Virus record (IMG/VR): IMGVR_UViG_2778261574_000002
Direction: 5' to 3' (one strand)
Source of the DNA: a virus
Lineage: Duplodnaviria; Heunggongvirae; Uroviricota; Caudoviricetes
Length of the DNA stretch: 64,000 bases
The position numbers were made by a program, and so were the translations under genes. This document shows, piece by piece, positions 42,434-44,598 of this stretch. The number at the start of each line of letters is the position of its first letter. Position 1 is the first letter of the stretch. The notes beneath the pieces are model-generated. The model saw nothing but the letters and a program-made list of their open reading frames with translations. It did not search any database and was not told the DNA's origin.

Positions 42434-42450
42434 AGATTTATTAGAGCAAT
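42434..42450 (-). promoter_or_regulatory. C1 operator
   Basis: AGATTTATTAGAGCAAT, 1 mismatch. Confidence 0.6.
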
Positions 42451-42956
42451 TATTGTTGGTGGAGAAGCGCGTTTTCATACTCCCTGACCATTAACGTAAG
42501 TACGCCGTGACTCCTGAAAACACGCGCCACTTCAATCTTATCTTCCAGCGCGAACGCAATTTTACTTAGACCAATTTTCTTCAGGAGATCAATCTTTGCT
42601 GGACCGTCATTTCTGTCATCGGTGGCAGGACGCATAGATAGCAAAGGCTCAGCCCCATTTGTTACGTGCTTACGCAACCAGGCTCGTGTTTTATCCCTGG
42701 CTATCTCACAGCGCCCGGTTACAAACCAGAGGGTGTAAATGCCGGACAACTGGCGCACCATATCAATAACTGGAGTGATGGGAGCATCAGTGTCACAGGC
42801 AAGGTTAAACTCGTTCCAGTGCTCTGTTAATGCACCTTTGCCAGGTGGTGGAAGTAAATGCAGCCTGTCTTCCGTTGCCTCTGATATCGTCCCATCAATA
42901 TCTACTATGACGATGTACGGACGTTCCTGGTGTGCGTGTTTATTGAAAATACTCAA
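42450..42956 (-). CDS. HAD-superfamily phosphatase-like protein
   Basis: N-terminal IVIVDIDGTIS (DxDGT motif I). Confidence 0.55.
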   Translation of the reverse strand: MSIFNKHAHQERPYIVIVDIDGTISEATEDRLHLLPPPGKGALTEHWNEFNLACDTDAPITPVIDMVRQLSGIYTLWFVTGRCEIARDKTRAWLRKHVTNGAEPLLSMRPATDDRNDGPAKIDLLKKIGLSKIAFALEDKIEVARVFRSHGVLTLMVREYENALLHQQ

Positions 42957-43028
42957 ATGCCCTCCTCATTGGACGAAAAAAATGCTGGTGGGCGCACTCC
43001 ACCAGCATTAAATGTGACACTGTAACTA

Positions 43029-44291
43029 TCAGCGAACGTAAATAGTGCCGCCGTTCTCTTTTTCCCATGCATCGCTACGTGCATAGCAAACATCGAGAAG
43101 TCTTCTTGCCGCAGTTTCCTCTAAACCCAATTCAACAACCAACTGCTCATGACGGCGGGTAACTACATCAAATAGGCTATGCAGCCCTTTATTGGCCAGT
43201 TCATCAATGAATTCCGGTTCGAACGGCAGCTCTACCTCTGCCAACATAACCTCTTGCGCCCACTCAACTCGACGGACCAGTTCCGGGCGGCGGCTTTCCA
43301 TCTCTTTACAGATCAATTCATGGAAGAACTCTACCCAACCTTCCGGCTGGAACTCGCGGAAAATGGCCAACGGCTGGAAGTTTGGCATCAACCATTCGTT
43401 GATCCGGATATCAATGGCATAGCCCATGTCGCAGCAGAACTGATAAGCAAAGTCCAGCTTAGAAACGATATAAGGACGCTCGTTATTGAACTCTTTAGGC
43501 GATGAGATCCCATAAGCCAGGAGGCGCGGGAAGAAGGAGATTTGCCCTAACGTCGGATGAAGTTTGCTTGCAGGGAAACGGCGCTCAGTAATGCCATACA
43601 TTTCCTTCTTGAGCGTCGCAAATTTGGCATTCTCATTAACCAGCGCGGTAACCTCTGCTTTTTTATTAGCAAATGCCACGCGCGCTTCGCTTGCATCTTT
43701 AATAGTTTTTTTGAGCTGTTGGTTAAGGTCGGCGACCTGCTTACGCAGTTCCTGTCGCTCGCTTTTAGCTTTGTTATAGCGTTTCTCAAGGTTAAAAGGA
43801 TCAAGTTTCATGATCTCTTTATATTGAGATTTTAGCGTTGAAATCTGTGAGTTCCGCAGTTCAACCATCGCGGTCATTTCATTGAGTTTTGTTTCCAGCT
43901 CAATGCTTATACGTTCGGCATTATCAGCACGCTGGTTGGCGTCATGCGTCGCATCGTCGATCGCGTCCTGTTGCTGGCGTTTCAAATGTTCAATTTGCAG
44001 CTGAAGCTCTTCAATTTCTTTACCCTTCAGACCGAGATCCAACTGCATATTTTCAGCTGCATCTACCAGGGAGTTATGGCTATCAGCTTCTGCGTTATAA
44101 ACATCAATAAGCTGTGCGTGAAGCATCTCCGCTGACTGAACCGCATTATCAAAAAAACGTGCTGTGAGGTCATCACAACTAACGCGGCGTTGCGCGGCCC
44201 GGATGTTCTGGATAATGGCCGGGATACCGGCATTCAGGACATCAGGGATAGATACATTTTCGATTGATTGGTTTTGTGCTGAAGTGCTCAT
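43029..44291 (-). CDS. coiled-coil protein of unknown function
   Basis: 420 aa; long heptad-rich middle (ELQLQIEHLKRQQQD...), globular C-terminus. Confidence 0.55.
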   Translation of the reverse strand: MSTSAQNQSIENVSIPDVLNAGIPAIIQNIRAAQRRVSCDDLTARFFDNAVQSAEMLHAQLIDVYNAEADSHNSLVDAAENMQLDLGLKGKEIEELQLQIEHLKRQQQDAIDDATHDANQRADNAERISIELETKLNEMTAMVELRNSQISTLKSQYKEIMKLDPFNLEKRYNKAKSERQELRKQVADLNQQLKKTIKDASEARVAFANKKAEVTALVNENAKFATLKKEMYGITERRFPASKLHPTLGQISFFPRLLAYGISSPKEFNNERPYIVSKLDFAYQFCCDMGYAIDIRINEWLMPNFQPLAIFREFQPEGWVEFFHELICKEMESRRPELVRRVEWAQEVMLAEVELPFEPEFIDELANKGLHSLFDVVTRRHEQLVVELGLEETAARRLLDVCYARSDAWEKENGGTIYVR

Positions 44292-44292
44292 T

Positions 44293-44511
44293 TCAAAGTT
44301 CCGTATTAGCTTGTGCTTCGGTCATTTTTCCTAAGTATGAAGGAGGAAGGACTACGCAATTTGTATCCAGTCCCTCACCTATGGCAGCCTGTAAAATTCT
44401 GGCTAAGGTGAGTCTCTTGTTGCGATACTTGGTGATGACATGCCTGATACCGCCGGTCGGCGTAACAAAGGCGATCAGCCAGTAGTGATATTTCCGTCGG
44501 AATGGCCACAT
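44293..44511 (-). CDS. hypothetical small protein
   Basis: 72-aa first ORF downstream of the operator pair. Confidence 0.35.
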   Translation of the reverse strand: MWPFRRKYHYWLIAFVTPTGGIRHVITKYRNKRLTLARILQAAIGEGLDTNCVVLPPSYLGKMTEAQANTEL

Positions 44512-44525
44512 AGTGCACCTTGTAG

Positions 44526-44542
44526 ATTGCTCTAATAAAAAA
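44526..44542 (+). promoter_or_regulatory. C1 operator-like site (pair member)
   Basis: ATTGCTCTAATAAAAAA. Confidence 0.5.
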
Positions 44543-44574
44543 CGTGATGAGTGTACATCACGTTTTAAAAATAT

Positions 44575-44591
44575 GGAATTATTAGAGCAAT
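44575..44591 (-). promoter_or_regulatory. C1 operator-like site (pair member)
   Basis: GGAATTATTAGAGCAAT, inverted relative to the site 35 bp away. Confidence 0.5.
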
Positions 44592-44598
44592 ATTATTC

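Follow-up and report, generated by a model that had tools for sequence, protein, structure and literature searches.

What is the three-gene unit that lies on the minus strand among operators of the C1 type, how is it controlled, and what do its products do? The question arises for positions 42,434 to 44,592 of a 64,000-nucleotide stretch of tailed-virus DNA (Caudoviricetes; IMG/VR record IMGVR_UViG_2778261574_000002), which is referred to as the window throughout. A sequence-only reading had recognized here a 72-residue protein, a 420-residue protein with a long coiled coil, and a phosphatase of the HAD family, and had held that no function follows from the sequence. Sequence comparison leaves the identity of the unit in no doubt, as it is the known pmgR-pmgS-pap operon of a P1-type (RCS47-like) phage-plasmid. 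That this operon is a C1-repressed early unit, with the regulation and the product roles proposed below, is in our judgement highly probable. New in the present analysis are two hairpins, the motif set of Pap without a kinase, the domain architecture of PmgS, and the genomic contexts of distant PmgS homologs.

Identity of the operon and its C1 operators

A megablast search of positions 42300-44700 against phage genomes returned full-length matches, with 99.4% identity to Escherichia phage RCS47 and 97.8% identity to P1. The match to P1 spans 2401 nucleotides (nt) and is accompanied by gene synteny with the annotated P1 locus; RCS47, whose PmgS is 100% identical to that of the window, is the closer relative. 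The feature table of AF234172 (GenBank AF234172/NC_005856 being the P1 reference records) maps onto this locus base for base, and the three open reading frames (ORFs) correspond to pmgR, pmgS, and pap. P1 agrees with the unit in its genes, their order and strand, in the operators and the predicted promoter, and in both hairpins; the two differ by point substitutions only. These substitutions change one residue in PmgR (71/72 identical), six in PmgS (414/420), and eight in Pap (160/168), and leave operators, promoter, and intergenic DNA as they are in P1. Hence, the unit is a rediscovery of a described operon, and the P1 map gains nothing from it, as the operon, the three operators, and the lytic-growth phenotypes of the deletions were all published before. 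The equivalent unit of P7 is the 'sht operon', in which shtA ('sheath structure or assembly'), shtB ('sheath contraction'), and pap are placed under 'Op(sht)' operators.

All three genes are on the minus strand, at the positions and with the lengths given in the sequence-only reading. The first, pmgR (44293..44511; PHROG 3177), encodes 72 residues. It is followed by pmgS (43029..44291; 420 residues; PHROG 1660), which starts 1 nt after the pmgR stop codon, and by pap (42450..42956; 168 residues), which has a TTG start preceded by an AGGAGG Shine-Dalgarno sequence and carries VDIDGT, including the DIDGT motif singled out earlier, at residues 18-23.

The 17-bp, asymmetric C1-operator consensus of P1 (ATTGCTCTAATAAATTT) matches 15 sites in the window at three or fewer mismatches, compared with 0.32 expected from shuffled sequences and a maximum of two in any shuffle. 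Three of these sites belong to the locus. Op86a (OpmgRa; 44575..44591, minus strand; ATTGCTCTAATAATTCC) is identical to its P1 counterpart and overlaps the -35 hexamer of the predicted promoter PpmgR. Op86b (OpmgRb; 44526..44542, plus strand; ATTGCTCTAATAAAAAA) is inverted and lies between this promoter and the ribosome binding site of pmgR, so that the two operators converge as the face-to-face pair that had been proposed. Op88 (OpmgT; 42434..42450, minus strand; ATTGCTCTAATAAATCT) deviates from the consensus by one mismatch and overlaps the stop codon of pap. The coordinates of all three fall exactly on the AF234172 protein_bind features OpmgRa, OpmgRb, and OpmgT. The P1 record names pmgR and pmgS, but not pap, as the genes controlled by OpmgRa, the former Op86a. 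By transfer from this annotation, C1 would bind and repress at PpmgR, and the expected derepression on induction or infection agrees with it.

The view that the operators bracket the unit did not stand. Op88 overlaps not only the pap stop codon but also the predicted P1/P2pmgT promoters of the P1 annotation, and is therefore the operator that heads the next unit, pmgT, a placement found likewise in Cronobacter phage JK004. A related explanation is that Op86a, Op86b, and Op88 act as one bracket, with a C1-mediated DNA loop silencing all three genes. The presence of operators at both ends of the unit, and of the same flanking layout in JK004, would fit such a loop. However, the P1 annotation lists all three operators as monovalent and assigns Op88 to the pmgT promoters, simple occupancy of a site downstream of the unit cannot repress initiation at PpmgR, and each of the 15 operators in the window heads a unit of its own. 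We thus consider looping highly improbable.

Promoter, hairpins and proposed regulation

The predicted sigma-70 promoter PpmgR (44562..44590, minus strand) was transferred from the P1 annotation. It consists of TTGCTC, a 17-nt spacer, and TAAAAC, with the -35 hexamer inside Op86a. Between Op86a and Op86b we found a hairpin (44539..44566, minus strand) with the sequence AAAACGTGATG-TACACT-CATCACGTTTT followed by TT. This perfect 11-bp inverted repeat has a folding energy of -13.4 kcal/mol (z=-5.2), overlaps the predicted -10 hexamer of PpmgR (44567-44562), and is not among the P1-record features returned for the stretch. It may be a pmgQ terminator nested within the pmgR promoter. A second, intrinsic-terminator-like hairpin (42972..43009, minus strand; hairpin proper 43009-42981) occupies the 72-nt spacer between pmgS and pap. 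It has an 11-bp stem with six GC pairs, a run of seven T residues, and a folding energy of -18.1 kcal/mol (z=-4.8). The three-gene unit that had been claimed is thus not continuous, as a strong intrinsic-terminator hairpin separates pmgS from pap. A promoter of its own was neither found for pap in the promoter scan nor annotated in the P1 record, and no -22 box of the P1 late promoters (AAGTTACTT, from LPhot) is present within 42,000-45,000.

This layout is conserved in JK004, the PmgS and Pap of which are 69% and 73% identical to those of the window, respectively. In both, operator a, the hairpin, and the inverted operator b precede pmgR and pmgS in that order; the terminator, pap, and an operator at its stop codon follow. 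Operator a of JK004 has one mismatch and is located at the equivalent position. The inter-operator hairpin of JK004 (-14.7 kcal/mol) carries two compensatory pair changes, and in its pmgS-pap terminator (-17.3 kcal/mol) the stem sequence is different, with hairpin and T-run kept.

We propose the following regulation. In the prophage, C1 bound to Op86a, over the -35 hexamer of PpmgR, and to the inverted Op86b would keep the unit silent. Once C1 is inactivated or absent, upon induction or in a fresh infection, pmgR and pmgS would be transcribed; the start of pmgS 1 nt past the pmgR stop codon suggests that the two are translationally coupled. The terminator hairpin after pmgS probably lowers transcription into pap, which would be served by partial read-through and has a strong ribosome binding site of its own. 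The inter-operator hairpin probably halts read-through from pmgQ. Transcripts from PpmgR would start within this hairpin and would hence escape termination there.

Several points count against this scheme. PpmgR is a weak match to the promoter consensus, falling under the threshold of a generic promoter scan, and its start site, like the termination efficiency of both hairpins, rests on prediction. In addition, pmgS and pap change together in an hfq mutant, in which pmgR behaves differently (one preprint). This pattern is a poor fit to simple co-transcription of pmgR and pmgS with attenuated pap.

Architecture, family and proposed role of PmgS

Deletion phenotypes for lytic growth, which the sequence-only reading had suggested as a check, are already available from a set of 29 single-gene P1 deletions, among which pmgR, pmgS, pap, pmgQ, and ppp were each deleted in frame (Gonzales et al. 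2022, PMC9024508). Deletion of pmgR is lethal for virion production, leaving heads and tails unjoined, and is complemented in trans (PMC9024508). Phages with an in-frame deletion of pmgS or of pap have no plating defect and are normal in their restriction behaviour (PMC9024508). A CRISPR interference (CRISPRi) screen scored pap and pmgS as non-essential too, and missed pmgR (PMC10695390). PmgR, PmgS, and Pap are all missing from the list of virion proteins that LC-MS/MS yielded. Of the 21 genes described as 'extremely conserved' in 77 P1-like phage-plasmids, two are pmgR and pmgS (PMC9603915). The statement that no function follows is accordingly outdated for pmgR and still applies to PmgS and Pap; although the genes are described P1 genes, a structural or morphogenetic role has been shown for pmgR only. 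Full-text literature searches found no functional study of PmgS.

The full-length AlphaFold2 model of PmgS (predicted local distance difference test (pLDDT) 75.7) contains a helix at residues 15-35, a 120-residue helix at 41-160, a turn, a helix at 166-232, and a globular part, in keeping with the long coiled coil and globular C-terminal domain that had been described. Residues 225-420, modelled from an alignment of 83 sequences, reached a pLDDT of 92.6 and a predicted template modelling score of 0.87. PmgS is composed of a long helical hairpin, an alpha/beta domain, and a C-terminal double helix-hairpin-helix domain, (HhH)2. The alpha/beta domain (approximately residues 233-350) has no structural match in PDB or BFVD. 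The C-terminal domain shows the five helices of the (HhH)2 fold, and the profile of the PmgS family matches the N-terminal domain of RAD51 (1b22) with E=8.8e-8 and the C-terminal domain of the RNA polymerase alpha subunit (alpha-CTD) with E=5e-6. Among 79 family members, 21 match the Pfam family HHH_5 and 15 match RNA_pol_A_CTD. The P1-type PmgS sequence alone has no Pfam match, and single-sequence searches (Pfam, NCBIfam, PADLOC, and PDB by phmmer) gave coiled-coil noise only. Positions conserved throughout the family include L163-x-P165 at the apex of the hairpin, W300, P303, P336, R341, W344, and KGxG.

The same type of domain as at the C-terminus of PmgS is found in the N-terminal domains of RAD51 and RAD51C, alpha-CTD, and NusA AR. 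Different from these proteins, PmgS joins the domain to a helical hairpin and an unmatched alpha/beta domain, and in the P1 clade it lacks the GhG signature. The long antiparallel hairpin with its conserved apex resembles that of SMC, Rad50, and LmuB proteins. Membership in these families was rejected, as PmgS scores 15-19 bits compared with cutoffs of 300-1000 and matches over residues 55-234 only, that is, over the helices. No ATPase head with Walker A/B motifs was found next to the coiled coil of PmgS.

Close homologs of PmgS occur only in P1-like elements, and a search for related loci with a shallow alignment returned near-identical P1-like contigs only. An exhaustive profile search recovered about 117 clusters at 50% identity, ranging from 350 to 560 residues, with most members of 350-470 residues. 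The homologs in Aeromonas phage phiARM81mr, in a lambdoid prophage, and in a Vibrio phage are found in the orders RecE, RecT, integrase, PmgS homolog, Dam methylase, exonuclease; RecT, Sipho_Gp157, PmgS homolog; and YfdP, YfdQ, PmgS homolog, methyltransferase, respectively. Other neighbours of PmgS homologs are NUDIX and DUF4942, or integrase, PadR, NA37, TrfA, RdgC or HU. None of the distant homologs examined lies within a structural module, and none has a PmgR outside P1/D6-like lineages; pmgS of P1 itself is in the C1-controlled early region, outside the structural module. In at least four diverged P1/D6-like lineages, which also have a DarB-like gene, a PmgR-like gene is located directly upstream of the PmgS-like gene, and the PmgR-like proteins are 29-37% identical and have the motif S(W/Y)LG(K/R)M(S/T)E in common. 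The small proteins encoded upstream of the PmgS-like genes of phiARM81mr and of locus L089 have no detectable homology to PmgR, which confines the pairing of PmgR with PmgS to P1-like lineages. Three database entries labelled 'PmgS' (P0002, P0005, and P0016) are chimeric, one of 480 residues having a Pfam match to DNA cytosine methyltransferase and one of 463 residues being named metallophosphoesterase. Rearranged or wrongly called P1-like elements are the probable source of these entries.

The genomic context of the distant homologs, the knockout and proteome data, and the domain content together leave the labels 'head morphogenesis', 'scaffold', and 'sheath contraction' unsupported for PmgS, which is most likely neither a virion protein nor a scaffold protein. 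We infer that PmgS is a dispensable early protein, the (HhH)2 domain of which would bind DNA or a protein partner in DNA transactions, for example recombination or the preparation of DNA for packaging. The data fit three roles alike: PmgS may bind DNA in recombination or in the making of packaging substrate, may bind a host protein via its alpha-CTD-like domain, or may be a dispensable helper of PmgR. More broadly, the PmgS family may, at somewhat less than even odds, be an overlooked class of proteins that temperate phages and phage-plasmids make early and do not build into the virion. The target of such proteins would be DNA, or a partner in DNA processing or transcription, be it in recombination-dependent replication, in counter-defence, or, with PmgR, in packaging preparation. 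The end-cleaning 3'-phosphatase of the same pathway could then be Pap.

Two observations speak against the favoured role. The consensus K388-G389-x-G391 of the HhH hairpin reads L-G-L-E here and is degenerate in other members of the P1 clade as well, and the tight pairing of pmgR and pmgS in P1-like lineages leaves room for a non-essential morphogenetic role. With respect to the first, the motif is kept in the distant homolog P0029 (TKGIGA); the degeneration makes DNA binding by the P1-clade PmgS uncertain and does not affect the fold assignment. Alternatively, PmgS would have the morphogenetic role that its names suggest and would serve with PmgR as a scaffold of the coiled-coil type or as a chaperone of assembly. 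It has a long coiled coil, as scaffolding proteins typically do, it is closely coupled to the essential head-completion gene pmgR even where PmgS identity has dropped to 20-27%, and both genes are within the highly conserved set of P1-like phage-plasmids. The existing labels point the same way, namely 'putative morphogenetic function' in P1, 'sheath contraction' for ShtB of P7, 'prohead scaffolding' in D6, and 'PmgS-like head morphogenesis' for PHROG 1660. On the other hand, phages with a pmgS deletion or CRISPRi knockdown plate normally, the 47-kDa PmgS was undetected in virions in which far smaller proteins were detected, its C-terminus is an (HhH)2 domain, and homologs beyond P1-like phages reside in early, recombination or regulatory regions. 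A morphogenetic role is therefore quite improbable.

PmgS could also be a host-takeover or anti-defence protein. In that case, the ligand of the alpha-CTD/NusA-AR-like (HhH)2 domain would be not DNA but a host protein, for instance RNA polymerase alpha, NusA, or a nuclease of recombination or defence. Pap would then clear away a phosphorylated signal or mend the damaged ends left by a defence nuclease. This appears unlikely, given that the knockouts showed normal restriction behaviour in one antirestriction assay, that the PADLOC matches are coiled-coil noise only, and that any partner of PmgS is purely a candidate. The modest value of the analysis is corrective and concerns the labels 'PmgS-like head morphogenesis', 'prohead scaffolding', and 'sheath contraction', together with 'polynucleotide kinase' for Pap, all of which lack support. 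P1-like phage-plasmids spread resistance genes, and pmgR and pmgS are among their most conserved genes. The real function of PmgS and its link to the essential PmgR would close a gap in a classic model phage, and the role of PmgS and Pap, which are conserved yet dispensable, is of moderate specialist interest.

Pap, neighbouring genes and further operators

The assignment of Pap to the HAD phosphatases was confirmed by a match to Pfam HAD_PNKP (PF25109) at 44.1 bits (cutoff 27.6; E=3e-11), and Pap matches PHROG 415 with E=5.7e-56. In an alignment of Pap, its RB49 and Rtp homologs, and the phosphatase half of PseT, the invariant residues are D19, D21, T23, G81, R82, R109, D113, R115, D117, K121, D139, and R148. 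HAD motifs I-IV are all present, namely DxDxT (D19, D21, T23), T80-G81-R82, K121, and E138-D139. By sequence, Pap hence has an intact active site of the Pnkp type. The DxDxT and other HAD motifs are shared with the phosphatase domain of T4-type Pnkp/PseT proteins, but the kinase domain of these proteins has no equivalent in Pap, which has no N-terminal P-loop 5'-kinase domain and whose alignment with the bifunctional, 385-residue PseT is confined to the C-terminal phosphatase half. The 'polynucleotide kinase' labels in databases are thus misnomers. The most likely activity of Pap, by analogy with the corresponding half of T4 Pnkp, is that of a 3'-phosphomonoesterase with nucleic-acid ends or nucleotides as substrates. 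P1 is not known to encode the RNA ligase partner.

With tblastn, 1164 phage records were found to contain homologs of Pap, the majority being stand-alone proteins of approximately 150-180 residues, as in T1-like phages, Klebsiella siphoviruses, Webervirus, and RB49, where the gene is located beside nrdB. Their labels vary between 'polynucleotide kinase', 'acid phosphatase', and '3'-phosphatase'. In phage Rtp (L092, 1441-2521), about 450 bp separate the stand-alone Pap homolog from a downstream gene annotated as a T4 Stp-like activator of the PrrC anticodon nuclease, a possible hint of a tie between these phosphatases and tRNA-damage defence.

Downstream of the unit, a pmgT homolog (41527-42255, minus strand; 242 residues) is 99% identical to P1 PmgT (309 residues) over its first 232 residues and then diverges. 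The shorter and different C-terminus fits the reported pmgT-humD variable region of P1-like phage-plasmids. A small hydrophobic ORF (42265-42399, minus strand), annotated as 'membrane protein' in SJ46, is situated just downstream of Op88 and ahead of pmgT. Its product would have 44 residues if translation began at the first ATG; a product of 28 residues (MNTAFKIIMAAIYFWLFSITFGGIVAHG), started behind an AGGAG Shine-Dalgarno sequence, is more plausible. A terminator-like hairpin on the plus strand (42379-42401; -17.4 kcal/mol) overlaps the 5' end of this ORF.

Upstream of the unit, positions 44599-45983 (minus strand) encode PmgQ, which has no Pfam match and is described as 'glycosyltransferase' by its PHROG, and Ppp, a Metallophos protein of the lambda-type Ser/Thr phosphatases. 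With Ppp and Pap, two different phosphatases are encoded in the same early region. Elsewhere in the window, the C1 operator is matched at 12 more sites, among them an inverted pair that overlaps (58867-58883 and 58878-58894) and constitutes a bivalent operator, and three that are clustered at 26788-27351.

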